NCBI GenBank assembly: GCA_041662205.1
Contig: JBAZSZ010000002.1
Location: 103,266-167,265, forward strand
From: Minisyncoccota bacterium
GTDB taxonomy: Bacteria; Patescibacteriota; Minisyncoccia; Phycocordibacterales; UBA9973
Direction: 5' to 3'
Length of the DNA stretch: 64,000 nt
In this document: piece after piece, positions 1-55,073 of the stretch
Layout: each line of letters opens with the position of its first letter
Numbering within the stretch: position 1 is the first letter of the stretch
Translations under genes and position numbers: made by a program
Notes under the pieces: model-generated
The model's database searches: none
What the model saw: the letters and a program-made list of their open reading frames with translations, nothing else
What the model was told of the DNA's origin: nothing

Positions 1-2060
1 CAAATTTTTGGCTTCAGATTGTTAGTGTTAAATGTTACTGTTTCTCCTATCCCAGCATTTTCCATATTTGCGAATGCGACAGGGGCGTTTGTTGGCCATG
101 CAGCATTCCCCCCCCATACATTGAGTCTTTCATACTCATTTTTTAATTCCGCATACCACTGATCGATATTATTGGGGTCTGTGGTCACTATCATATTACT
201 GTTAGCAATTTGGTTGATTTGAGCCATACCCATAGATATAAATGATTTTGCTGCCGAAGTGTCAGCCACAAAATATACCGCTTGTCCTGGGTATAATCTT
301 ATATTGAACTCAGTTTGGCCTAGCGCAAGGGGGACGTACTGGTGATTAGTGGGATTCTCAGACTGAGATATTGGAGTAGTAGTACCCACGGTAATATTTA
401 CGACGACATTTTTAACGGGATTAGAAGAATCTTTTATTTTCACAAAGGTGGCGCCATCGGCTATCCCCGATACGATCAAGTTTGCACCAGAGAGGAGAGC
501 TATAGCAACAGCTTCATTAGAATTTGTTTGGATAGAATAAGGTTCTGCCCCTCCGGATATTGCGGTGATAATTTGGCTACCTGTACCAGCAGTAGTTGAA
601 ATATTTGCCGGAGTAGATATTAGGTCTCCAATGTTGTTTACAGTAATATTTACAGTTTTAGTTTTAACTGGGATAGATGTGTCTTGTACTATTATTGAAG
701 TTGTGCCCTTGGTGACACCAACAATTGTGAGTTTTTGAAGAGAGCCAGAAACATCAATAGAGGCAATAGCTATGGCTGTCGATGCTTCTGGTTGAGGTTG
801 GATACTATAAATTCCTGAACCTCCTGATATTACCGTGCTAGCCGTAGCCCCGACAGTTACCGAAGCATTGTCTGGGACGATTAAATCATCAGCGGTGGGA
901 GTACTGCCATCTAAAGTAACACCATCATAACTAAAATTATCTACTGTTGATGGAGTGCCACTTATTGCACCAGAGAGAGCGTTCAAGCCTTTATTTAAAA
1001 AGTGAGTTAAAAGGGCGTCAAAAATACTAGACAAGCTATTCCCTATTGCTCCATCAAGTGCAGTTGTTAGAAATGGAGAGTTGAGTGCAGACATTACTTG
1101 GTTGGCTGCTACCGAACCGGGAGTAGTATTTTTTAAACCACCTGGGCAATCGTTTGTTAATGCCCATGTAGCTTTAGCTGCTGCTTCGTTTGCGTAATAG
1201 TCATGAATATAGTCGTCGTATGCTTGTTGTTGTGCTGGATCTGTTGGAATATTATTGCCTTCAGAATCTAATCCTCCCCCTGTTACTGTGGGAGGATTAA
1301 AGGCAACAGGATTTTGGAAACTTGGTCTGTTAAATTCGTTGGTACCATTGTTGTAACTAGGATTAGATGGACAAGTTTGTGGAGAAAGAAAACCCATGCC
1401 TTGTTGAAGTAGAGATTGATATTTTTGCGCTGGCGCTTGGACTGTGTCTCGAAGTTGTAGGGCAAGGTAATCAGTCATTTGCATTTGGGATCCTATATAA
1501 TTGTTTTGAGGGTACTGGGTGTTTATTAAAAATCCATTCCATCCACCGACGTTAAAATTATTTCTATAACTCTCAGCTTGTGCCCCATTCATTACCTTGC
1601 TCAAGGTGTACCCCATATTATTGGAAAGCTGGCTTTTGTAACTATTTATGGCATTTAGGGCAAATTGTTTTCCGAAAGGATAAAGCAAACTATCATAGCC
1701 AAAAGTATTTACTACATTTTTTAGTTCAGATTTTGCTATATCATTAAAGAAAGAGGTTGGATTTTCTAAAAAAAGTGGTGATCCATGAAAATCAGAATTT
1801 ATCCAATTTATAGTAGATTGGGTCATTTTTGCTAAAAGTTGCTTTGCGATTGTTTTAAGTAATTGTTCACCGATACGTTTAGCCCAATCTTTAAAGGTCC
1901 AAGCCTCAGTTAAATAATCATTAACTGGTACGCCTACTGGTACTACAGCAGCTCTTACTTGTCTTGGTATAGAAAATAAAATAGTGGGAGTAATGATAGA
2001 AATAATTAAAAGAGCAGAGATAAATTTTACTGTTTTATTTTTGGTTGAAATTTTTTCCAT
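1..2060 (-). CDS. Secreted protein with bacterial Ig-like (Big-2-type) domains, truncated by the window edge (start codon near 2058-2060, 3' end outside the window)
   Basis: Open reading frame with no stops on the minus strand from ATG at about 2060 to position 1, found by manual translation and absent from the ORF track because it lacks an in-window stop. It has an N-terminal signal peptide-like segment (MEKISTKNKTVKFISALLIISIITP...) and repeated segments such as GTTSIIVQDTSIPVKTKTVNITV that are typical of Ig-like folds. Confidence 0.6.
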   Translation of the reverse strand, partial: MEKISTKNKTVKFISALLIISIITPTILFSIPRQVRAAVVPVGVPVNDYLTEAWTFKDWAKRIGEQLLKTIAKQLLAKMTQSTINWINSDFHGSPLFLENPTSFFNDIAKSELKNVVNTFGYDSLLYPFGKQFALNAINSYKSQLSNNMGYTLSKVMNGAQAESYRNNFNVGGWNGFLINTQYPQNNYIGSQMQMTDYLALQLRDTVQAPAQKYQSLLQQGMGFLSPQTCPSNPSYNNGTNEFNRPSFQNPVAFNPPTVTGGGLDSEGNNIPTDPAQQQAYDDYIHDYYANEAAAKATWALTNDCPGGLKNTTPGSVAANQVMSALNSPFLTTALDGAIGNSLSSIFDALLTHFLNKGLNALSGAISGTPSTVDNFSYDGVTLDGSTPTADDLIVPDNASVTVGATASTVISGGSGIYSIQPQPEASTAIAIASIDVSGSLQKLTIVGVTKGTTSIIVQDTSIPVKTKTVNITVNNIGDLISTPANISTTAGTGSQIITAISGGAEPYSIQTNSNEAVAIALLSGANLIVSGIADGATFVKIKDSSNPVKNVVVNITVGTTTPISQSENPTNHQYVPLALGQTEFNIRLYPGQAVYFVADTSAAKSFISMGMAQINQIANSNMIVTTDPNNIDQWYAELKNEYERLNVWGGNAAWPTNAPVAFANMENAGIGETVTFNTNNLKPKI

Positions 2061-2098
2061 TTTCTTTTATTTACTTTCTTTATTGTATAATTTTTTAC

Positions 2099-3025
2099 TT
2101 AGTTATTCAATTTTTGTTTAATAGTGTCTGTTAGATTTTTAGCGGAAGATGTTAAGGCAAAGGCATTTTTTTCATATTGGACTATGGCGCCTATTGCTAC
2201 TATCGGATCATTCTCAAAAAGTTTTAGATCGCTTACGGTTTCTTTAATTTTTTGAGAATTATTTATTAAATTTAAATGCAACAAAGAGAGAGATTGTGGT
2301 ACTGGTAGTTTTAATGATTCATTAATAATCTGATTTGTTTGATTAATGACTGAATCAAGTTCTGCTAATTTTGCAGTGTTTGTTTCATCTGCTATAAATT
2401 CTTCCAAGATGGCTGGTACTCCTTTTTTAATGCGGTGTTTTATATAAATATTATTTAAAGAGTCGCTGTATTTTTGGATAACAAGTTTTGTTTCAGTATT
2501 AATGATTTTAATATCAGAAATTCTATAGATTTTTCTTTGGGTAGAATTTTCTATTTTATCGGATAGAGAATTACTTAAGGCATCTATTGTTTCTTGGTCT
2601 ACTTGACCATTTTGACTTAGGGCTGTAACTGTCGCAAAAAGCTCTCTGGAGAATTTGTCCGTTTGAGTTAGGTTTTCTGCACCTGTGGGACCTCCAATAG
2701 TAGCACTAGCACCGGCTTTTTTTTCTTGTTCAGCTCTTAATTTACTTAAGGTAATGCTGTCAGGTGTCCCCAAGGTAGTTTCTTTTTTGTTCGGGTCAAG
2801 ACCATATAAGCTTTCTTGCCAATCCGGTATTCCATCACTGTCGGTATCTTTGTCTACTAGATCTAGTATGGTGGCATTCTCATCATAAGTCAGACCATTT
2901 TTTGTATTATTTTCTTGATTAGATATTTTAGTATTTTTGAATAGAGATGTCTTTTGAAAAATTAAAAGTACCACTAAAAAAAGCACCGCTAAGATGATTA
3001 GAATTATCTTTTTGTGTTTTACCAA
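2099..3025 (-). CDS. Membrane-anchored hypothetical protein with a DxDxDG calcium-binding (thrombospondin type 3-like) motif
   Basis: ORF track, 308 aa, with an N-terminal hydrophobic helix and the motif DKDTDSDGIPDWQE. Confidence 0.55.
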   Translation of the reverse strand: MVKHKKIILIILAVLFLVVLLIFQKTSLFKNTKISNQENNTKNGLTYDENATILDLVDKDTDSDGIPDWQESLYGLDPNKKETTLGTPDSITLSKLRAEQEKKAGASATIGGPTGAENLTQTDKFSRELFATVTALSQNGQVDQETIDALSNSLSDKIENSTQRKIYRISDIKIINTETKLVIQKYSDSLNNIYIKHRIKKGVPAILEEFIADETNTAKLAELDSVINQTNQIINESLKLPVPQSLSLLHLNLINNSQKIKETVSDLKLFENDPIVAIGAIVQYEKNAFALTSSAKNLTDTIKQKLNN

Positions 3026-9838: not shown

Positions 9839-9890
9839 AAGTATTTATATTATATATTTTTTAATTTTTAATACCAAATTTAGGTTAAAA

Positions 9891-9903
9891 TAGTTATCCA
9901 CAT
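9891..9903 (+). promoter_or_regulatory. Perfect DnaA-box-like motif TAGTTATCCACA upstream of a -35/-10 pair (LysM-M23 gene leader)
   Basis: TTATCCACA is the canonical DnaA box. The same extended 11-12-mer recurs at 12069-12078, 26966-26976, 42156-42167 and, in reverse orientation, at 37783-37794, each 25-40 nt upstream of a plausible -10 hexamer. Confidence 0.5.
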
Positions 9904-10170
9904 TAATTTACGATTAAATTGACTTTTGACCCTTTTTGAGCTATTTTAGGAGTATAGTTCTGAAGAGAGGTATGGGGCAAATTGACCGAATTCCAGAGAA
10001 GATAGTAACATCGTGAGAATCTTTTTCCACCGGTTGGTGGACACAGTACTGTGGTCGTCCTGTAATTCTAGCCTTATATTTAAAGGCTAGAAAAGGAAAT
10101 CTCGCGACATTTTGTTTGTTTTATAAAACCTAAATTCAAAATTCTAAAATCACTCGTATCCTTTTTCCTG

Positions 10171-11184: not shown

Positions 11185-11218
11185 ATTTGCTCTAAAAAGC
11201 AAAACTACTTATTTGTTG

Positions 11219-11289
11219 TGCGGGATAGGCGAATCGAACGCCTGCCCAGAGTTTGGAAAACTCTTATTCTACCACTAAACTAATCCCGC
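11219..11289 (-). tRNA. tRNA-Gly (anticodon UCC)
   Basis: Manual fold of the reverse complement. Acceptor GCGGGAT/ATCCCGC, anticodon stem AGAGU/ACUCU with loop UUUCCAA, T-arm AGGCG-UUCGAUU-CGCCU. Confidence 0.75.
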
Positions 11290-11334
11290 TTTCGTTAAAG
11301 CTTCGGCGGGCGAGCCCGCTTAGGCTATAACTTG

Positions 11335-11405
11335 TCGGGCTGCTGGGAATCGAACCCAGTCTAAACGCTCCCAAAGCGCTTGTACTACCGGTATACTACA
11401 GCCCG
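11335..11405 (-). tRNA. tRNA-Pro (anticodon UGG)
   Basis: Manual fold. C1:G72 acceptor CGGGCUG/CAGCCCG typical of bacterial tRNA-Pro, anticodon loop UUUGGGA, T-arm CUGGG-UUCGAUU-CCCAG. Confidence 0.75.
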
Positions 11406-11452
11406 TTAAATTATCAAGCTACAAAAACACATAACTACGCTCATATAATATA

Positions 11453-11863
11453 TCACAAGATAATATCACTTACCACTTTTATTTTCGCTTTTTTGTTTTG
11501 TATATCAAGGAATACAATCAATAGATCCACTTGCCATCCTTTTTCATCAGGTATTTTTTCTGATAAAAGATAAGTTTGTATTGTTCGTGATAAACGTTTA
11601 AGTTTCCATGGGTGCATATTGTCTTCAGGCTTATAGTTATCTTTTGTTCCATGTGAAACATTTTTTAAGGTTTTATGTGCGACTGATTTTACTTCAATAA
11701 AGTGTAATTTATTGGTCTTTTCAGCTACAATATCTATTTCACCCCATTTTTTCGTATAATTTCTATTTAATATTAGAAAATTATGTTTCATGAGAAACCT
11801 TACAGCTATATTTTCTCCAATTTCTCCAGTTTTTTGGGTTTTTGAGGTAAATACTTTTGGCAT
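11453..11863 (-). CDS. yraN: YraN-family (UPF0102) predicted endonuclease
   Basis: 136 aa with the GEIDIVA core typical of UPF0102/YraN. Confidence 0.65.
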   Translation of the reverse strand: MPKVFTSKTQKTGEIGENIAVRFLMKHNFLILNRNYTKKWGEIDIVAEKTNKLHFIEVKSVAHKTLKNVSHGTKDNYKPEDNMHPWKLKRLSRTIQTYLLSEKIPDEKGWQVDLLIVFLDIQNKKAKIKVVSDIIL

Positions 11864-12132
11864 TTTATTTATTGTTTTAAAATAAAATCCTTATTTTAAA
11901 AACAAAAAAGCTGTTTCACGTTTAACATGTTTCACATGAAACATAGTAACAAATTTTTAGTAAATTTTATGTCTTTTACTATAATATCCTTATTTTATAA
12001 GATATATACAGAAAAAATGCTAATAAAAGACAGTTTCATATTGTGTCCTTTATGAACAGTACTAACATAGTTATCCACAATTTTATTAAATCTTTAATTT
12101 ATAAGGTATTATTAAGGGACATCATTTTTTTG

Positions 12133-12203
12133 TGCGGCCAGAGAGAATCGGACTCTCGTCTCATCCTTGGCAAGGACGTGTTCTACCACTGAACCATGAC
12201 CGC
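12133..12203 (-). tRNA. tRNA-Gly (anticodon GCC); the T-loop reads UCCGAUU rather than UUCGAUU
   Basis: Manual fold. Acceptor GCGGUCA/UGGCCGC with one U-G pair, D-stem GUUC/GAAC, anticodon loop UUGCCAA, T-stem GAGAG/CUCUC. Confidence 0.65.
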
Positions 12204-12275
12204 AAATTTATCTATGTATAAAGACCACCGAATATGACCGCAAACTACTTATGTATAAAAACCACCGAATATGAC
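12204..12275. repeat. Two tandem ~34-bp direct repeats, each carrying a pseudo-copy of the first ~17 nt of the adjacent tRNA-Gly(GCC)
   Basis: tatgtataaagaccaccgaatatgaccgcaaa occurs twice. On the minus strand it reads gcggtcatattcggtgg, against the tRNA 5' end gcggtcatggttcagtgg. Confidence 0.7.
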
Positions 12276-12418
12276 CGCAAATTATATTTTAAAAAACTAT
12301 AAACAATTATAATATTTAATTAGAACTAATGCAATTATTAAATTAACCAATTAAATAAAGCTTATTTGTGAGTATTTTAAAAATAATGTATAATATGTAG
12401 TATTATTATATTAATTAC

Positions 12419-12490
12419 GCACTCGTAGTGAAATGGATATCACAATAGTCTTCGGAACTATTATTGAGGGTTCGAATCCCCCCGAGTGCA
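12419..12490 (+). tRNA. tRNA-Arg (anticodon UCG)
   Basis: Acceptor GCACUCG/CGAGUGC, D-stem GUGA/UCAC, anticodon stem AUAGU/ACUAU with loop CUUCGGA, T-loop UUCGAAU. A TATAAT-like -10 lies about 30 nt upstream. Confidence 0.7.
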
Positions 12491-14105
12491 CAAAACAAAA
12501 GTGGAACAGGATGTTAAAAATTTAATATCAAAAACACCCAAAGAAGTTTCACATGTAACTAATACGCTCGAAAAAGATGGTTTTGAGGCATATCTAGTTG
12601 GCGGGTGCGTTAGAGATCTTTTGATGTCTAAGGAGCCAAATGACTGGGATATCACAACTAATGCTAAACCAGAGCAAATTATAAGTCTTTTTGAAAAGAC
12701 TGTTTATGAGAATGGCTTTGGTACAGTAGCTGTGGTTGTTCCGCGTGAAACACATCAAGAGGATGTTTCACATGGAACAAACCCTATTCCCTTGTCAGAA
12801 GAGAAAAATATGATTATAGAAGTTACTCCTTATAGAATTGAAGCAAAATATAGCGATTTTAGACATCCAGATGAGGTGAAATTTAGTGATAAGCTGGAGG
12901 ACGATCTTAAAAGACGTGACTTTACGGTTAATGCCATGGCCTTAAACAGTAAAGGACATCTGGTTGATTTTTTTGATGGTATAAAGGACATTAACGAAAA
13001 GACAATAAAGGCAGTAGGGAATCCAGATGATCGTTTTGCTGAAGATGCTCTCAGGATGTTGCGCGCTGTACGTCTTTCCTGCCAGCTTAATTTTTCTGTG
13101 GCTTATGAAACGATGCAAAGTATTTTGAAAAATTCAGAGTTGATAAAAAAAATTTCTGAAGAAAGAATTCGTGATGAGTTTGTAAAAATAATTATGTCGG
13201 AAAATTCCGCGAATGGAATCGTGATGTTACAAAAATTTAATTTGTTAAAAAATATAATTCCTGAACTAGAAGAGGGAATAGGCTGTGAACAATCCGGTGA
13301 GCATATTTACGACGTTTGGAATCATTTACTTCATGCATTAGAACATGCGACAAACAAGAATTGGTCTTTGGAAATAAGGCTCGCAGCGCTTTTCCATGAT
13401 ATTGGGAAGCCCCGAAGTAGGCGTATTGCGGAGCGAATTGATAATTTATCAGGTCCTCGGTCTTTCGGGTCCCTACCCCGGCCAGACCATGACAAATCAT
13501 CAATTCGCTCCGCAAAGAAAAAATTTACTTTTTACGGTCATGAAGTTGTCAGCACGCGGATGGCAAAAAAAATAATGGAGAGATTAAAATTTCCTAAAAA
13601 AGAAATTGAGTTAGTAGAAAAACTTGTTCGCAATCATATGTTTTTTTCTGACACAGAATTAATCACGCTGTCAGCCGTGCGAAGAATTATTGCAAAAGTT
13701 GGAAAAGAAAATATTTGGTTATTGATGAATGTCCGTGAGTGCGACAGGGTAGGGATGAAGAAAAAAGAAACCCCATATCGCCTTCGGAAGTATTTTGCCA
13801 TGATTGAGGAAGCCCTGAGAGATCCTATTTCTGTCGGACAGTTGAAAATCAACGGTGAATTTATGATAAAAGAGCTTGGAATCACTCCCGGACCACGCAT
13901 GGGGTGGATTTTACATGCATTACTCGAAGAAGTGCTAGATGCTCCGGAGAAAAACACGGTAGAACATCTGTCGGAGTTGGTAAAATCTTTAAATATGTTG
14001 GGGGATACAGAACTAAAAACTCTTGGTCTACGTGGAAAAGAAAAAAAAGAAGAATTAGAAGAAGAAGAGGTTGTGAAGCTTCACAAAAAGCATGGAGTGA
14101 AATAA
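12486..14105 (+). CDS. cca: CCA-adding tRNA nucleotidyltransferase with an HD domain, carrying an in-frame palindromic element insertion
   Basis: GGCVRDLL, RRDFTVNA, and the HD motif LFHDIGKP...FYGHE with about 26 extra residues (..NLSGPRSFGSLPRPDHD..) between GKP and FYGHE, encoded by repeat copy D. The start is a GTG at 12486 (overlaps the tRNA-Arg 3' end by 5 nt) or at 12501; there is no early in-frame ATG. Confidence 0.8.
   Translation: MHKTKVEQDVKNLISKTPKEVSHVTNTLEKDGFEAYLVGGCVRDLLMSKEPNDWDITTNAKPEQIISLFEKTVYENGFGTVAVVVPRETHQEDVSHGTNPIPLSEEKNMIIEVTPYRIEAKYSDFRHPDEVKFSDKLEDDLKRRDFTVNAMALNSKGHLVDFFDGIKDINEKTIKAVGNPDDRFAEDALRMLRAVRLSCQLNFSVAYETMQSILKNSELIKKISEERIRDEFVKIIMSENSANGIVMLQKFNLLKNIIPELEEGIGCEQSGEHIYDVWNHLLHALEHATNKNWSLEIRLAALFHDIGKPRSRRIAERIDNLSGPRSFGSLPRPDHDKSSIRSAKKKFTFYGHEVVSTRMAKKIMERLKFPKKEIELVEKLVRNHMFFSDTELITLSAVRRIIAKVGKENIWLLMNVRECDRVGMKKKETPYRLRKYFAMIEEALRDPISVGQLKINGEFMIKELGITPGPRMGWILHALLEEVLDAPEKNTVEHLSELVKSLNMLGDTELKTLGLRGKEKKEELEEEEVVKLHKKHGVK
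13443..13499 (-). repeat. Palindromic element copy D (reverse orientation) inside cca
   Basis: aggtcctcggtctttcgggtccctaccccggccagaccatgac. The variant central hairpin ttcggg/ccccgg contains one G-U-type mismatch. Confidence 0.75.
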
Positions 14106-25349: not shown

Positions 25350-26966
25350 ATGAGTTTTGCCAAAGTTTATTCAGCGCAAGTTAATTTACTCAAGGGTTCT
25401 ATCGTGACTATTGAAGTAGATCTCTCAAAAGGGCTCCACTCTTTTAGCTTGGTTGGTTTGCCGGACAAAGCGGTGGATGAATCCAAAGATAGAGTAAGCG
25501 GAGCCATAAAAAATTCTGGCTTTAAATCTCCCAAAGCAAAAAATCAAAAGATAATAGTTTCGCTTTCACCGGCTGATTTGAAAAAGGAGGGCCCTTTTTT
25601 TGATTTAGGAATTGCTTTGTCTTATATGCTAGCGGCGGGTGACGTGAAATTTGATTCAGAGAAAAAGATTTTTTTAGGAGAGCTGGGGCTCGATGGAACT
25701 TTGCGGAAAATCCGTGGGGCCTTACCACTTGCGCAAGAAGCTAAAAGACTTGGTTTTGAAGAAATATATTTACCAAAAGAAAATGCAGTCGAGGCGGCGT
25801 TAGTGGAAGGCATAAAAATTTTTGGAGCAAATAGTTTGCAGGAAGTGGTGAGGCATCTAAGCCCCAATGAGGCCAGCAAAATTTTTTCGGGTCCTCGGTC
25901 TGAAGCCAGACCAGCTCAAAAATCTTCTAGCCTCATTGAGGCTGGAGGATTAATTAATATTCAGCCGCAAACAAAAATAAATTATAAAAAAGAAATATCA
26001 CGGATTGATTTTTCAGATATTCGTGGGCAAGAGGGAGCCAAGCGAGGTTTGGAAATTGCGGCAGCTGGCGGACACAATATCGCCATGTATGGCCCACCGG
26101 GCACAGGTAAGACGATGCTTGCTCGGGCATTTTCTCAACTACTACCAGATTTAGATCTTGATGAGGTTTTAGAAATTACAGGCATTCACTCAGTAGCAGG
26201 AAATACAAATGGAGAGTTAGTTTGTTTTCCTCCATTTCGTTCCCCGCATCATACTTCGTCCTATGTTTCTATTATCGGTGGAGGGACATATCCAAAGCCC
26301 GGAGAAGTGACGCTCGCACATCGCGGAGTTTTATTTTTAGATGAATTTCCAGAATTTGAAAAAAGAGTGATCGAATCTCTGCGCCAGCCACTCGAAGACA
26401 ACATTGTTTCAATTTCGCGCGCCAAAGGAAATGCTTGTTTTCCTTCAAATTTTATTTTAGTCGCGGCGATGAATCCTTGTCCTTGTGGGAACGCGACTTC
26501 GAAACAAAAAGCATGCATTTGCAAACCGTCCGACTTAGATAGATATAAAAGAAAATTGTCTGGACCGATTGTGGATCGTATCGATCTCTGGGTTTCTGTC
26601 GGTAACGTTGATTATAAAAAATTAGGAGGCGATGGGGATGGCGAGAAAAGTGAAAAGATAAAAGAAAGAATAATCAAAGCGCGAGAAAACCAAAAAAATA
26701 GATTTAAAAAATTTGAGAAAGATATTAAGAAAAAAATCACAACTAATAGTGAGATGAATGTAAAAGATCTAGGTATGATGGTGCCACTCGGTGGCAAAGT
26801 GAGAGACTTGCTCGATGATAGTGCAGAACGTTTGAGCTTGTCTGCTCGCGCCTATCATCGGATAATTAAAATAGCATGCACGATAGCAGACTTGGAAAAT
26901 TCTCCTGAGGTAGAAGAGCATCATATTTTAGAAGCGATACAATATCGACCGAAAGTTAATAACTAG
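25350..26966 (+). CDS. comM: YifB/ComM-family Mg-chelatase-like AAA+ ATPase, carrying an internally deleted copy of the palindromic element in its linker
   Basis: N-terminal Lon-like domain, Walker A GPPGTGKT, Walker B VLFLDEF, and a C-terminal Mg-chelatase region. The linker SGPRSEARPAQ is encoded by repeat copy E. Confidence 0.8.
   Translation: MSFAKVYSAQVNLLKGSIVTIEVDLSKGLHSFSLVGLPDKAVDESKDRVSGAIKNSGFKSPKAKNQKIIVSLSPADLKKEGPFFDLGIALSYMLAAGDVKFDSEKKIFLGELGLDGTLRKIRGALPLAQEAKRLGFEEIYLPKENAVEAALVEGIKIFGANSLQEVVRHLSPNEASKIFSGPRSEARPAQKSSSLIEAGGLINIQPQTKINYKKEISRIDFSDIRGQEGAKRGLEIAAAGGHNIAMYGPPGTGKTMLARAFSQLLPDLDLDEVLEITGIHSVAGNTNGELVCFPPFRSPHHTSSYVSIIGGGTYPKPGEVTLAHRGVLFLDEFPEFEKRVIESLRQPLEDNIVSISRAKGNACFPSNFILVAAMNPCPCGNATSKQKACICKPSDLDRYKRKLSGPIVDRIDLWVSVGNVDYKKLGGDGDGEKSEKIKERIIKARENQKNRFKKFEKDIKKKITTNSEMNVKDLGMMVPLGGKVRDLLDDSAERLSLSARAYHRIIKIACTIADLENSPEVEEHHILEAIQYRPKVNN
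25884..25913 (-). repeat. Internally deleted palindromic element copy E inside comM
   Basis: ttttcgGGTCCTCGGTCTgaagCCAGACCAgct. Both termini are retained and the central palindrome is replaced by gaag. Confidence 0.6.
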
Positions 26967-26992
26967 TTATCCACAGTACCTTTGTTGACAAG

Positions 26993-27008
26993 TGAACGCT
27001 TGTTCACT
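26993..27008 (+). promoter_or_regulatory. Cheo-type LexA (SOS) box GAAC-N4-GTTC inside a sigma70-like promoter (TTGACA, 18 nt, TATACT)
   Basis: ttgacaAGTGAACGCTTGTTCACttatact. The operator fills the -35/-10 spacer. lexA lies about 260 bp downstream on the same strand. Confidence 0.7.
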
Positions 27009-27065
27009 TATACTATATTTACGACCAAGTCGCGGGTCAAATTAGTAAAAATAATAAATAAACAT

Positions 27066-27272
27066 ATGAGTCAATCACAATATTTAAAAATGCTAGAGAA
27101 GGAAATACAAAAAATCAATAAAAAAATTGATTTGAAAATTCTCCAGGGGCAAGATTATCGAAAGGAAGCAAGAGATCATAAATTGCTTTTAAAAAAAGTT
27201 CGTTATAACTCTAGAGTTAGTTTGACGAACAGATTTGTTACTCTATTCTTCAGAACAAACATCTATGCATAA
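27066..27272 (+). CDS. Small basic protein (68 aa), translationally coupled to lexA
   Basis: MSQSQYLKMLEKEIQKINKK... The stop TAA overlaps the lexA ATG (ATGCATAA). It lies downstream of the SOS-box promoter. The ORF-track TTG-extended version (26982) overlaps the promoter and is probably spurious. Confidence 0.45.
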   Translation: MSQSQYLKMLEKEIQKINKKIDLKILQGQDYRKEARDHKLLLKKVRYNSRVSLTNRFVTLFFRTNIYA

Positions 27273-27843
27273 TTCCTATCAGGAAAAGATTGAATCTTTT
27301 TATAAAGAGAATAAAAGAATGCCAGCATACTCTGAAATGATGAAGTTATTCGGTTTCAAATCAAAGAATGCTGTGTTTCGAGTGGTGGAGAAGTTGATTA
27401 ACATGAATATGGTTGAGAAGGATCATTTGGGTAGATTAATCCCATCTGAAACATTTACAGAAAATATTTCTAGTATTCCCATGCTTGGTTTTGTCACGGC
27501 TGGATTTCCGGCAACGGTGGAAGAAGAGTTGGCAGATAAAGTAAATTTGGATGATCTTTTAATAAAAAATAAGCCGCTAACATATATGCTTGAGGTAGAT
27601 GGAGATTCAATGATCGATGCCCACATAAAACCTGGGGACATGGTACTCGTAGAAAAAACAAATACCGCTCGCGACGGGCAGATAGTTATTGCTGAAGTAG
27701 ATGGAGAATTTACGATGAAATATTTTCGCAAAACTGTTACAAAAGTCTGGCTCGAACCAGCGAATAAAAATTATAAACCGATTTATCCAAAACATTCGCT
27801 AAACATTAATGCAGTAGTTAAGGCGGTTATAAGGAAATATTAA
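27265..27843 (+). CDS. lexA: LexA repressor (S24 peptidase)
   Basis: Winged-helix N-terminus (MPAYSEMMKLFGFKSKNAVFRVVEKL), cleavage region, VDGDSM (Ser nucleophile), GDMVLVE, and the catalytic Lys region MKYFRK. Confidence 0.85.
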   Translation: MHNSYQEKIESFYKENKRMPAYSEMMKLFGFKSKNAVFRVVEKLINMNMVEKDHLGRLIPSETFTENISSIPMLGFVTAGFPATVEEELADKVNLDDLLIKNKPLTYMLEVDGDSMIDAHIKPGDMVLVEKTNTARDGQIVIAEVDGEFTMKYFRKTVTKVWLEPANKNYKPIYPKHSLNINAVVKAVIRKY

Positions 27844-37248: not shown

Positions 37249-37602
37249 TTAAGCGGATGTTACCTGTCGGAGTCCTGTTCCATCGTCGCTTGTTTTCCTT
37301 ATTGCCGCTACAGGCTGTAATCCCTTGCCGTCATCCTGGCCCATTGCCTTTGTAGTTGCGATAGTCCAGCCGTCTTCTTTTGCGAGGTCCTGCTGCCCTG
37401 TTGCCTTCATAAGAATACCCTGATCCACGGTAACGGCGTCGGTGATAGTTGCGCCTTCTTCTTTTGCGAGGTCCTGCTGCCCTGTTGCCTTCATAAGAAT
37501 ACCCTGATCCACGGTAACGGCGTCGGTGGCTGCGAACGCGATAGCGGCGCACAGTACTGTAAAACAACAGCATAGCACTACCAATAAAAGTTTCTTCTTC
37601 AT
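37249..37602 (-). CDS. Small secreted protein with two 28-aa tandem repeats and atypically high GC
   Basis: Signal peptide MKKKLLLVVLCCCFTVLCAAIAFA, a strong AGGAGGG Shine-Dalgarno sequence, repeats (A)TDAVTVDQGILMKATGQQDLAKE(E/D)G, and local GC of about 55-59% against about 35% nearby. Confidence 0.6.
   Translation of the reverse strand: MKKKLLLVVLCCCFTVLCAAIAFAATDAVTVDQGILMKATGQQDLAKEEGATITDAVTVDQGILMKATGQQDLAKEDGWTIATTKAMGQDDGKGLQPVAAIRKTSDDGTGLRQVTSA
37374..37541. repeat. 84-bp tandem direct repeat x2 inside the 37249-37602 gene
   Basis: cttcttttgcgaggtcctgctgccctgttgccttcataagaataccctgatccacggtaacggcgtcggtg occurs twice with a period of 84 bp. Confidence 0.8.
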
Positions 37603-37816
37603 ATTTTCCCTCCTAACAGAAAATTTATGAAAAAAATCTTACTCTAAATTTTATCAACAAGCTTCCTAACTTGTCGATACGGGTCTCGAGCGTCCCCGTT
37701 GTTTTTTTATTGTTTCAACGTACCTCCTTCAATTAGATACTATCAAATAACGATTTTTCGTCAATTTAGAAAAAGCGTGATTGTGGATAACTCGCCAGAG
37801 GCGAGCAAGTTCTTTT

Positions 37817-38869
37817 TTATTGGTTTTCTAAAAACTGAAAAATTTTTTCGTTGGTGAGGACATTTTCGGCGTGCATGCGGGCGCGTTCAGGGTCGGCGTC
37901 TTTGTAGTGTTCTAGGATTGCGGCGACTTCGTTGGCTACTTGTTCGTCGTCGGCGACTATTTTTTCCGCTTTAGCTATCTCATTTAAGATCAGAGCGAGT
38001 TTGGCTTTTTTTTCAGCATCAATTCTAAATTCTTTTCGCAAATCTTCTTTTGTTTTGTTTAAATGTTTTAAATAATCTTCAAATTTTAATCCCATTTGGG
38101 TGATGTCGGACTCCATGCGGTATAAGATTTTGTCTAATTCAACTTCCACTAAAATTTCAGGCAGATCCATAATACTACCTTCTACTATTTCTTCTATGAT
38201 TTTTAGACGAGTTTTTTCTTTTTGCCCGTTTTCTTTTTCTAATTTTATATTTTCTCTTAGTTTGGTTTTAAAATCTTCAACATCTTTGAAGGGGCCAAGC
38301 GCTTGCACAAAAGCATCATCGAATGTGGGGAGTTCTGGTTCTGGGTGTACATGTTCCTCACCTTCTTTGTGTTCATGCTCTGCCATATGCACCTTGGGTG
38401 CGCGAGATTTACGGATATCCATGATGGTATTTTCTAAATCTTCATCAGAGACAACGATATTTTTCTCAGCATCGGTAACACCTCCTATTTTTTTTGCAGC
38501 GTCTTTGTAGTCAGGAAGTTTTATTTCCGGTAAGATAGCAGTTTTTATTTTAAATCCTAGAGGATTATTACGCGCTAATTTTATGATAGAAATTTCTGGT
38601 CTACTTATGACGTCTAGTTTTTCATCGGTAATTATTTTGGGGTAATGTTCACCCAAAGCCATCTCTGCCATTTCTTCTAGGATGCTAATCTCTGGGATAT
38701 TAGAAAGCAAAACATTTTCAGGAACTTTGCCCTTTCTAAAACCATCTAATTTAACATTTTCACCAAGCTTTTTTAATGCTTTCGAATAATAAGACTCAAA
38801 AATTTCGGCTTCTAGTTCACCTTCAATTTCTACTTCACTTTTTGGAAGTTTGTTTACTGTTATTTTCAT
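37817..38869 (-). CDS. tig: Trigger factor (compact form)
   Basis: N-terminal ribosome-binding signature GFRKGKVP. Total length about 350 aa. The likely start is MKITVNKLPK. Confidence 0.75.
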   Translation of the reverse strand: MKITVNKLPKSEVEIEGELEAEIFESYYSKALKKLGENVKLDGFRKGKVPENVLLSNIPEISILEEMAEMALGEHYPKIITDEKLDVISRPEISIIKLARNNPLGFKIKTAILPEIKLPDYKDAAKKIGGVTDAEKNIVVSDEDLENTIMDIRKSRAPKVHMAEHEHKEGEEHVHPEPELPTFDDAFVQALGPFKDVEDFKTKLRENIKLEKENGQKEKTRLKIIEEIVEGSIMDLPEILVEVELDKILYRMESDITQMGLKFEDYLKHLNKTKEDLRKEFRIDAEKKAKLALILNEIAKAEKIVADDEQVANEVAAILEHYKDADPERARMHAENVLTNEKIFQFLENQ

Positions 38870-38903
38870 AATTTTTAGTCTATATTTATTTATGTTTTTT
38901 GTC

Positions 38904-38944
38904 AAAAAAATAACCCCGTCGCTCGTGAGCGACGGGGTTATTTT
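38904..38944. terminator. Intrinsic terminator (for the minus-strand gene 38957-39184) just upstream of the tig promoter
   Basis: aaaaaaaTAACCCCGTCGCTC-gtga-GCGACGGGGTTAtttt. Confidence 0.7.
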
Positions 38945-39212: not shown

Positions 39213-40079
39213 TTATTGACTGTCGCTTCCTGAATTATTAGAATTATCTAATTTCAATTTATCTAATTCTATTTTTACTTCGTCTTTTAAAGATTTAACT
39301 GCATCTCTAAGTGCTTGATGAGCATCTTTAATAAGATTTTGAGTATCTTGTGCAAGAGTTACTAATTTAGCTTTTTCTGTTGCAGAAAGTTTATTAACTG
39401 AGGTTGCTAGAATTGTGTTTATTTCTGTAATTTTTACATTAGCAGTATTTAGTTTTGTTTCAGCTGTTGTTACAAAAGCTTTAGCGTTCGTAACATTTAC
39501 TCCCTTCAATGCTAGTTTGGCTATTTGATTGTTAATTCTATCTTTTAAATTATTCATTCTTGCAACTGCCGCATCAAATCTCTGTAATGCATTTTCTCTT
39601 CCAGAAATTCTTGTCTCGCCATCTAATTTTTTGGCTAAATTTTTTTCTCCTTTAAGGATAGATTTTAAATCCTCTAGTTTATTTTTTGCTACTTCACGTA
39701 GTGCCCTGTTTGCATCATCACCACTATCAGATGAATTGTCGATACGCACTCCAGCTGCATTAAAATCTCCTCTACCTTGGTCTGGGGTCCCATCATCATC
39801 ACCAGGAGTATTGTCTATGCGTACTCCAGCTGCATTAAAATCTCCTCTACCTTGGTCTGGGGTCCCATCATCACCAGGAGTATTATCTACACGTACTCCG
39901 GCAGCGTTGAAATCACCAGAACCTTGGTCAGGAGTTCCATCATCACTACCACCTCCACTACTACTAACGCCACTGGAAGAATTACCAGAACTTCCATCTT
40001 TTGCTTGAGAGTTATTTGCATTCATCATAAACACTAGCATTAAAACAATCACAAACAAACCTATATTTTTTTTCATCAT
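39213..40079 (-). CDS. Secreted protein with three tandem 22-23-aa RGD-containing repeats and a C-terminal coiled coil
   Basis: Signal peptide MMKKNIGLFVIVLMLVFMMNANNSQA. Repeats GDDGTPDQG(R/S)GDFNAAGVR(I/V)DNTP x3. The DNA repeat period is 66-69 bp over about 39740-39950. Confidence 0.6.
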   Translation of the reverse strand: MMKKNIGLFVIVLMLVFMMNANNSQAKDGSSGNSSSGVSSSGGGSDDGTPDQGSGDFNAAGVRVDNTPGDDGTPDQGRGDFNAAGVRIDNTPGDDDGTPDQGRGDFNAAGVRIDNSSDSGDDANRALREVAKNKLEDLKSILKGEKNLAKKLDGETRISGRENALQRFDAAVARMNNLKDRINNQIAKLALKGVNVTNAKAFVTTAETKLNTANVKITEINTILATSVNKLSATEKAKLVTLAQDTQNLIKDAHQALRDAVKSLKDEVKIELDKLKLDNSNNSGSDSQ

Positions 40080-40220
40080 AAATTTTTTAGATATTAATTA
40101 ATAATAATATTATTCTATTCTCAAACATCATCATTAATTTAACATTAATTTGATAATTGTTGATAAATAGAACCTCCTTTTTATATTTTATCAATAAAAC
40201 AACTAAAAACAATAGCAACT

Positions 40221-42057: not shown

Positions 42058-42086
42058 ATTATTATTTTATTAAGTTTTATTAAAAA

Positions 42087-42110
42087 AAGCCCTGTGGCTA
42101 CAGGACTCAT
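42087..42110 (-). terminator. Candidate leader terminator/attenuator in the nusA 5' region (minus strand)
   Basis: On the minus strand: GUCCUGU-agcc-ACAGGGC followed by UUUUUUU, about 30 nt upstream of the nusA ATG. No co-directional upstream gene exists for it to terminate. Confidence 0.45.
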
Positions 42111-42214
42111 ACCAGAAAATAGTACCATAAGAGTGATTTTTATGCAAACACAATAGAGTTATCCACACCTCTGATTCACCCTTTTTCTTTTTTGTTCTAT
42201 ACTTATCTTAACTT

Positions 42215-54599: not shown

Positions 54600-55073
54600 A
54601 TGAAAATTTATACAGATGGAGCAGCCAAGGGGAACCCAGGCAGGTCCGGATGGGGGGCGGTTTTTATCGTAATGGATAAGGTTTTTGAAATTGGTGGAGG
54701 GGTAGACCATGCCACAAATAATCAAATGGAGTTAACAGCGCCCATTGAAGCTTTGAAGTTTCTAGCTAGGCAAGGTCTAGTCGGAGATGATGTGGAAATT
54801 GTTTCTGATTCTAAGTATGTGATCTTGGGAATTACAGAATGGATTTTTAATTGGCAAAAAAATAATTGGCGCAATGCTAAAAAGGAGCCTGTTTTAAATC
54901 AGGTTCTTTGGGAAGAATTATATTCTCTTACACAAGAATTTGCTTGTTTACCAAATAGGGAAAAAATTAAATGGACTTATGTAAAAGGACATAATGGAGA
55001 TAAATATAATGAAAGGGCGGACGAAATAGCTACCAGTTTTGCGGAAGGCAAGCCGGTAAAATTGAAAAAATAG
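54600..55073 (+). CDS. rnhA: Ribonuclease HI
   Basis: MKIYTDGAAKGNPGRSGWGAV, SDSKYV, HNGDKYNERADEIA. Confidence 0.85.
   Translation: MKIYTDGAAKGNPGRSGWGAVFIVMDKVFEIGGGVDHATNNQMELTAPIEALKFLARQGLVGDDVEIVSDSKYVILGITEWIFNWQKNNWRNAKKEPVLNQVLWEELYSLTQEFACLPNREKIKWTYVKGHNGDKYNERADEIATSFAEGKPVKLKK

Follow-up and report, generated by a model that had tools for sequence, protein, structure and literature searches.

Perfect DnaA boxes at conserved positions upstream of promoters suggest a small DnaA regulon in a Patescibacteria lineage

The replication initiator DnaA is also an established transcription factor (PMC8203912). In Escherichia coli it acts on the promoters of dnaA, nrdAB, polA, purH, rpoH and uvrB/DARS1 (PMC11317965), and uvrB, an SOS gene, is co-regulated by DnaA and LexA (PMC6015884). 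In Bacillus subtilis the DnaA regulon includes dnaA-dnaN, sda, ywlC, yydA and trmE (PMC8203912). DnaA-box-controlled promoters are therefore known, but their occurrence, architecture and targets in the Patescibacteria appear to be undescribed in the literature that we searched, where the only relevant items on DnaA boxes in the Patescibacteria or the candidate phyla radiation were notes on origins. A large part of bacterial diversity belongs to the Patescibacteria, most of which are uncultured. They have few regulators, and the control of their transcription is almost unknown. Here we analysed a stretch of 64,000 nucleotides (nt) of contig JBAZSZ010000002.1, called the window below, from a Paceibacteria/Nomurabacteria-like member of the Patescibacteria with a G+C content of about 35%. 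NusA-based loci gave this placement, and two proteins with 100% identity to products of the window carry the label Candidatus Paceibacterota. The window carries five perfect copies of the DnaA box TTATCCACA, and we estimate a probability of roughly 60% that they are the high-affinity DnaA operators of a small regulon, where we infer from sequence comparison both DnaA as the binder and an effect of the binding on transcription. This suggests that in a tiny-genome groundwater bacterium the replication initiator doubles as a regulator of genes, a role that is known for DnaA and was not described for this phylum in the same literature.

The five exact copies of TTATCCACA lie at 9894 (+), 12071 (+), 26967 (+), 37782 (-) and 42159 (+) and are numbered here as sites 1 to 5 (Table 1). 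The expected number was 0.53, and 0 of 100 dinucleotide-preserving shuffles gave five copies. All five sites have the form AGTTATCCACA, that is, AG stands before the 9-mer, and all five are intergenic, with crude gene calls covering about 95% of the window. They are exact 9-bp asymmetric matches to the DnaA box, and the 9-mer is invariant at orthologous sites, while variants of TTATCCACA with one mismatch occur in the window at chance level (26 versus 18.7 expected). An earlier note on this DNA had claimed five perfect 9-mers against an expectation below one, all of them intergenic, and both claims were borne out, since the sites lie outside plausible genes; it had also placed the sites correctly, with coordinates that were off by 0-1 nt. 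The shared prefix that it described holds as AG in the five window sites, but this is a preference and not part of an obligatory 11-mer, because the prefix varies at orthologous promoters of the pilus gene, where the 9-mer is invariant. The near-match that it gave at 55071 had to be discarded: the sequence there is TTATCCTAA, which makes no credible box, as it departs from the consensus at two positions of the critical CACA part and runs across a stop codon.

The similarity among the five sites ends at 11-12 nt, and the flanks beyond about 12 nt are unrelated. A longer dispersed repeat, such as a miniature inverted-repeat transposable element or a repetitive extragenic palindrome, was rejected on this ground, which also answered the repeat check named in the earlier note, as the motif is not part of anything longer. 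A chance cluster, or a fragment of a repeat or mobile element, has a negligible probability: the AG prefix is all that speaks for it, and it is opposed by the shuffles, by the unrelated flanks and by the orthologous positions kept in dozens of relatives. A DNA uptake sequence was rejected because the motif occurs only about once per 13-30 kb, almost exclusively between genes and in phase with promoters. An upstream (UP) element was rejected as well, since the motif has three C in nine positions, is invariant, is not A/T-rich and is carried by few promoters only, so the term "UP-like element" from the earlier note was dropped.

The motif was also counted in the window together with 21 related genome loci. 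The top non-low-complexity intergenic 9-mer in this set was TTATCCACA itself, with 23 copies in 36.9 kb of intergenic DNA versus 6 copies in 368 kb of coding DNA; the simulated expectation for these spacers was 0.24-0.46 copies, and the remaining top intergenic words were terminator stems. The non-Patescibacteria loci of the same search had almost none. Conservation at the same position in relatives was found for four of the five sites (lexA, pilus, LysM-M23 and the yraN-tRNA spacer). Boxed promoters in the NusA-centred relatives precede genes for Hsp20, for a type IV secretion system (T4SS) pilin, for a PKD/CARDB surface protein and for unknown products. The lexA-centred relatives, with 878 kb in total, contained about a dozen boxes besides the lexA box, and about half of these were promoter-like. 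So few boxes point to a compact and partly lineage-specific regulon, with the lexA promoter as its most conserved member, and the earlier suggestion of a global regulator was overstated.

These boxes share several properties with the DnaA-controlled promoters of E. coli, namely the 9-mer consensus, the G flanks and a small intergenic regulon (PMC11317965), one SOS-linked target that would come under both DnaA and LexA, as uvrB does (PMC6015884), and, at site 2, a double-box geometry with a 3-bp spacer. Unlike in E. coli, four of the five window boxes are single and have no recognisable partner, the helical phase of the boxes upstream of the -35 element is fixed, and the proposed targets are lexA itself, a pilus cluster, an M23 hydrolase and secreted proteins. 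The density of perfect boxes per Mb is also several times that of E. coli (32 in 4.6 Mb, PMC11317965). The B. subtilis regulon (PMC8203912) resembles this one in belonging to a low-GC bacterium of Gram-positive type, the SOS box here being of the GAAC-N4-GTTC type, and in the use of DnaA as a transcription factor that ties replication status to a handful of operons, as is proposed here. DnaA of B. subtilis recognises the same box. In contrast to the clusters of several boxes in B. subtilis, there is as a rule one perfect box per promoter here, and as far as we could see no target gene of B. subtilis is common to the window. The region from -40 to -62 is contacted by the C-terminal domain of the RNA polymerase alpha subunit at class I activator sites and UP elements, and the boxes described here fall within this zone, at two positions that are separated by roughly one helical turn. 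This element is an invariant 9-mer that contains G and C, in contrast to UP elements with their degenerate, A/T-rich sequence. The literature examined gave no known contact between DnaA and the alpha subunit.

Table 1 Boxes, promoter-like sites and associated features in the window
Feature	Position	Strand	Sequence elements and remarks
Site 1 box	9892..9902	+	AGTTATCCACA, exact match; between two divergent promoters
LysM-M23 promoter-like site	9919..9947	+	TTGACT, 17 nt, TATTTT; promoter scan
Divergent promoter-like site towards 918-aa gene	9849..9877	-	TTGGTA, 17 nt, TATAAT; promoter scan
Site 2 array	12050..12079	+	TTATGAACA, GTACTAACA, TAG, TTATCCACA; three head-to-tail boxes
Six parS-like sites	11645..12779 (11645, 11784, 11912, 11928, 12737, 12764)		TGTTTCACGTGAAACA with 1-3 mismatches
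Site 3 box	26965..26975	+	AGTTATCCACA, exact match
lexA operon promoter	26985..27014	+	TTGACA 26985-26990, SOS box GAACGCTTGTTC 26994-27005, TATACT 27009-27014; read from sequence
lexA operon	27066..27843	+	68-aa open reading frame 27066-27272, lexA 27265-27843; Pfam Peptidase_S24 in lexA
Site 4 box	37782..37792	-	AGTTATCCACA, exact match
Site 4 promoter-like site	37737..37764	-	TTGACG, 16 nt, TAGTAT; read from sequence
Site 5 box	42157..42167	+	AGTTATCCACA, exact match; between nusA promoter and pilus-cluster promoter
Pilus-cluster promoter-like site	42175..42203	+	TTCACC, 17 nt, TATACT; read from sequence
nusA promoter	42112..42147	-	TTGCAT, 17 nt, TACTAT; neighbours the box, independent of it

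The lexA operon promoter (site 3) was compared in 80 metagenome loci with LexA at 76-91% identity, together with the window and the relatives L003 and L006; among the sources of close relatives were the groundwater assemblies Ga0172379 and Hainich H41/H43/H51. The promoter was held in 73 loci of this set, which gave 64 distinct sequences, and these share a common architecture of box, -35, SOS box and -10. The box was perfect in 61 of the 64 distinct promoters, and each of the other three had one mismatch. The gap from box to -35 was 9 nt in 49 sequences, 8 nt in 14 and 10 nt in one, and the gap from box to -10 was 31-33 nt; in the window the two gaps are 9 nt and 33 nt, and the 18-nt spacer between -35 and -10 holds the SOS box. 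Conservation is low in the spacer and in the 5' flank; the box stays fixed while the flanks drift. Directly beside the box, G was found at -1 in 59 of 64 sequences and at +1 in 58 of 64, with A or G at -2. In the window, the lexA operon is preceded by comM. The first gene of the operon, an open reading frame of 68 amino acids (aa) that starts with MSQSQYLKMLEKEIQKIN, overlaps the start of lexA, and the translations of both genes are conserved in L003 and L006; the first gene had no Pfam match and could be an SOS-linked effector.

The box at site 5 stands in front of a gene for a 96-aa membrane protein, which heads a type IV pilus cluster and is divergent from nusA; genes for a PilB-type ATPase and for PilC follow downstream. 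The gap from the box to a weak -35 (TTCACC) is 7 nt, and that to the -10 is 30 nt. Eight relatives have the 9-mer, unchanged and with freely varying flanks, in front of their equivalent gene for a small membrane protein. In the relative L001 this gene lies 3 kb away from nusA, and the box has moved along with it. In the nusA spacer of L001, L002 and L006 the nusA promoter and the leader hairpin are intact, a different gene faces nusA, and the box is absent. Since the box moves with the gene and is absent where nusA has another neighbour, it belongs to the promoter on the pilus side and not to nusA. The leader hairpin itself is a conserved G+C hairpin followed by a T-run at 42082-42110 (-), between the nusA promoter and the start codon, and was found in almost every Nomurabacteria-like relative; it resembles a terminator or attenuator of the leader, through which NusA might regulate its own gene.

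Site 1 lies 16 nt from a -35 on both sides, with a gap of 39 nt to the -10 on the plus strand, where the downstream gene encodes a protein with the Pfam domains LysM and Peptidase_M23. The box and the 16-nt gap are kept in syntenic relatives with 83% and 59% peptidase identity (L161 and L164), and the whole LysM-M23 promoter is conserved in both. In L162 (71% identity) the box has one mismatch (ATATCCACA), and its spacing is identical to that of site 1. The divergent promoter-like site is not conserved in L164, and its status is uncertain. A stretch of about 65 nt in the 5' leader of the LysM-M23 gene (9956-10021) is also conserved in L161 and L164, at 59-83% protein identity; a search of this leader gave no credible Rfam match, and the stretch is possibly a cis-regulatory RNA of an uncharacterised kind. 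The homologues have lengths of 360-389 aa, so the gene probably starts at a codon upstream of 10171.

At site 4 the gaps from the box are 17 nt to the -35 and 39 nt to the -10, and a leader of about 115 nt follows before the gene for a secreted repeat protein of 117 aa with a signal peptide (37249-37602, -). The protein contains tandem repeats of about 25 aa (ATDAVTVDQGILMKATGQQDLAKE) and is an orphan, with one homologue among 5.8 billion proteins, which lies on a 579-bp contig that begins after the -10. The adjoining trigger factor gene (37817-38905, -) encodes only 362 aa, in which Trigger_N and Trigger_C were found and the peptidyl-prolyl isomerase domain was not detected.

Taken over the window, sigma-70-like promoters follow sites 1, 3, 4 and 5 on the same strand with gaps to the -10 of 39, 33, 39 and 30 nt, which puts the boxes at about -44 to -61, near the -45 to -55 given in the earlier note. 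The earlier description of every site as lying 25-40 nt upstream of a -10 holds for these four and is not borne out at site 2. For lexA, the pilus gene and LysM-M23, the box stands beside the promoter and its position is conserved in orthologues. The phase was analysed with 21 promoter-like sites other than lexA from the window and its relatives, for each of which the best -10 was picked. The gap from box to -10 was 28-33 nt in 10 sites and 38-43 nt in 11 sites, and never 34-37 nt, which has a P of about 0.002 under a uniform model and a Rayleigh p of about 5e-4 at a period of 10.5 bp. The two classes are about one helical turn apart. Orthologous pilus-gene promoters occur in both classes, which means that insertions or deletions shifted the box by about a helical turn and not by half a turn. 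The spacer that precedes the gene 39213-40079 also has a box with one mismatch (TTATCAACA) at 40158-40166 (-), and a -10-like hexamer, TAGAAT, follows 40 nt downstream; this spacing is that of the second class of boxed promoters, and the box could be a weaker member of the regulon.

DnaA appears to be the most economical binder of these boxes, because their core is the canonical 9-mer, because the flank preferences (RG-box-G) resemble those of the boxes bound in E. coli in chromatin immunoprecipitation (ChIP), and because site 2 has the order of weak box, 3 bp and consensus box that is reported for DnaA dimers. In E. coli, G is the commonest base at both -1 and +1 of the ChIP-bound consensus boxes, as tallied from Table 1 of PMC11317965, and gagTTATCCACAg at oriC and datA is an example of such flanks (PMC11317965). 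The arrangement GTACGCACA-tag-TTATCCACA at site 2 of L164 parallels TTACGCACA-gag-TTATCCACA at purH of E. coli (PMC11317965). The box is asymmetric and not repeated, which is what one would expect if its protein binds as a monomer. It is also conceivable, and in our judgement unlikely, that the sites are read by another lineage-specific monomeric factor with the recognition sequence RGTTATCCACAG, for example a stand-alone protein resembling DnaA domain IV, and that the likeness to DnaA boxes is coincidental or derived. Such a factor would suit the conservation of positions -2, -1 and +1 at lexA, the lack of enrichment of one-mismatch variants, and a set of surface, secreted and stress genes with none for replication, and single sites are poor in vivo targets of DnaA in E. 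coli. However, the core agrees with the universal DnaA consensus in all nine positions, the preferred flanks resemble those of sites bound by DnaA in E. coli, the pilus promoters fix the 9-mer and leave the flanks free, site 2 has a tandem geometry of the DnaA type, and the other factor would have to compete with DnaA at every site.

Several points weigh against DnaA operator sites of a small regulon. In E. coli, DnaA mostly depends on paired boxes to bind in vivo and leaves many single consensus boxes unoccupied (PMC11317965); four of the five window sites are single. Neither dnaA nor oriC of this lineage was found among the window and the loci, so the box preference of the host is an assumption. 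The targets are not those of the classic DnaA regulon, which are genes for nucleotide synthesis and replication, and the -35 and -10 of lexA are already near consensus, so that an activator is not obviously needed. A strict dependence on orientation was borne out only in part, as among 41 sites outside lexA a good -10 lay on the forward side of 21 and on the reverse side of 15, which is a modest bias. The phasing used heuristic -10 calls in A/T-rich spacers, which yield chance -10 matches, and orthologous promoters are not fully independent data points.

If the sites are DnaA operators, one DnaA molecule would bind the perfect 9-mer through domain IV, preferably in the form RG-TTATCCACA-G, immediately upstream of the -35, at a centre of about -48 or -57 and on one face of the helix. 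At this position DnaA would contact RNA polymerase and tune a small set of operons by the level of free DnaA, which would mirror the state of replication initiation or replication stress. At the lexA operon, control by DnaA would come on top of the autorepression by LexA at the SOS box. The other targets would be the first gene of the type IV pilus cluster, the LysM-M23 cell-wall hydrolase and the secreted repeat protein, and in relatives the genes for Hsp20, T4SS pilin and surface proteins. Boxes at lexA, pilus and wall-remodelling genes would link replication and the DNA-damage response to the surface machinery on which episymbionts rely. They would also offer a natural test of regulation by DnaA from single boxes with helical-phase dependence, which would refine the picture from E. 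coli. A more far-reaching version, which we regard as speculative and rather doubtful, is that the Patescibacteria, being poor in transcription factors, recruited DnaA as a phase-locked single-box regulator that wires lexA, the pilus and surface genes and the wall hydrolase to replication initiation, with the array beside the parS sites as a datA/DARS-like locus or an element of an unconventional origin.

This array is site 2, which we treat as a class separate from the promoter-linked single boxes. The perfect box at 12071 is the third box of the array, and no same-strand promoter is evident, so the earlier description of it as a single promoter-upstream box does not apply. The array lies in the yraN-tRNA spacer and faces the 3' end of a minus-strand tRNA-Gly gene; yraN (UPF0102) is about 200 nt away, and the site is upstream of it in the opposite orientation. 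The block is conserved in L011, L021, L161, L162 and L164, with neighbouring proteins that are only about 50-60% identical. Box b (GTACTAACA in the window), which matches the consensus in 5-7 of 9 positions, and the 3-bp spacer to the consensus box are conserved in six lineages. A second box of at least about 5/9 matches, 2-3 bp away and in the same orientation, was found at site 2 only; sites 1, 3, 4 and 5 have no partner at 2-3 bp, and the 9-mers upstream of them match in 2-3 of 9 positions. Sites resembling parS (TGTTTCACGTGAAACA, up to three mismatches) number seven in the window versus 0.36 expected, and six of these flank site 2 in a cluster that lies within and around yraN, the tRNA genes and the first part of the gene for the CCA-adding enzyme. 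They were also found around yraN in L011, L017, L021, L161, L162 and L164, and the cluster suggests that this is a conserved centromere region and that the origin is near. The site 2 array would bind a DnaA oligomer and would more likely serve the biology of DnaA or of the chromosomal origin region, or else regulate yraN and the tRNA genes locally. The gene of the CCA-adding enzyme is adjoined by four tRNA genes at 11218-12491 (Gly-tcc, Pro-tgg, Gly-gcc and Arg-tcg), and the tRNA-Gly(gcc) gene has no encoded terminal CCA; this tRNA/CCA-enzyme neighbourhood is conserved in relatives, and Rfam detected only tRNAs in the window.

Replication origins of the oriC type with a basal unwinding system and DnaA-trios (PMC8287927), and the loci datA and DARS, are like site 2 in having tandem boxes of graded strength beside A/T-rich DNA, here in a parS-rich and apparently origin-proximal region. 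They are unlike it in that we found no convincing trios, skew switch or nearby dnaA, and sites 1, 3, 4 and 5 have no box cluster at all. We therefore also considered that site 2, with its A/T-rich flank and parS sites, is the replication origin or a part of it and that the other boxes are its satellites, which we hold to be very improbable. The conservation of the three boxes, to which L011 and L021 add further weak ones, the parS sites on both sides, a raw GC-skew minimum near 11-12 kb and a switch of gene strand near 10-12 kb are what an origin could show. However, the array has three boxes only, dnaA and dnaN are not nearby, and the GC skew at fourfold sites is positive on the plus strand nearly throughout the window, including the part left of site 2 (+0.37/+0.39 at 1-3 kb), with no change of sign in the window or at site 2 in L161, L162 and L164. 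Runs of at least three NAN trios, judged by eye after PMC8287927, were found beside site 2 in 2 of 6 orthologues; the trios there are weak, at best 2-3 triplets, and are not conserved. A relaxed scan (up to two mismatches) gave no cluster around sites 1, 3, 4 and 5, a scan for at least three good boxes within 400 nt found nothing origin-like in any locus, and the DnaA signature peptides GKTHL and DH[ST]TV were absent from the window and 80 loci. Thus we saw neither a box cluster with an unwinding element or trios nor a skew switch and/or an adjacent dnaA-dnaN. The statement in the earlier note that the boxes are not an origin agrees with these data, the site 2 array being the only box cluster. 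Its wider reading, a transcription-factor site or DnaA acting as regulator, survives for promoter-adjacent sites of regulatory type, without the words "UP-like" and "global" and without site 2, which is of another class.

The window as a whole is probably close to the origin, as indicated by the parS cluster and by a T4SS cluster to the left of it in a syntenic relative. T4SS clusters and ksgA are reported near dnaA in Paceibacterota, and dnaA and dnaN near virB4 (bioRxiv 10.1101/2025.01.22.634366). This position bears on a further explanation, that the boxes bind DnaA mainly as titration or reservoir sinks near the origin, in the manner of datA, and have no direct role in transcription. Perfect DnaA boxes bind both nucleotide forms of DnaA, which suits titration. 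So do the origin-proximal look of the window and its box density (one per 13 kb), which is higher than in the lexA-centred loci of relatives, and E. coli shows selection for boxes near oriC (PMC12371093). We consider this explanation quite unlikely, since titration does not require the fixed gap to -35 and -10 or the 10-bp phasing, the box has moved with one particular gene in a rearrangement, about 64 distinct genomic contexts retain the lexA box, and nearly all sites are intergenic though 90-95% of the DNA is coding. Regulation of a compact set of promoters by DnaA is the reading that we keep for sites 1, 3, 4 and 5.

In L167, a 75%-identical relative, neither dnaA nor further boxes were found in the part that corresponds to the left of the window. 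The region 12154-22103 of L167, which is syntenic to the region immediately left of window position 1, encodes PrgI, a TraC-like protein, a VirB4-like ATPase and a fusion of T4SS pilin with NlpC/P60. The window genes at 1-3025, beside this region, encode large proteins of unknown function.

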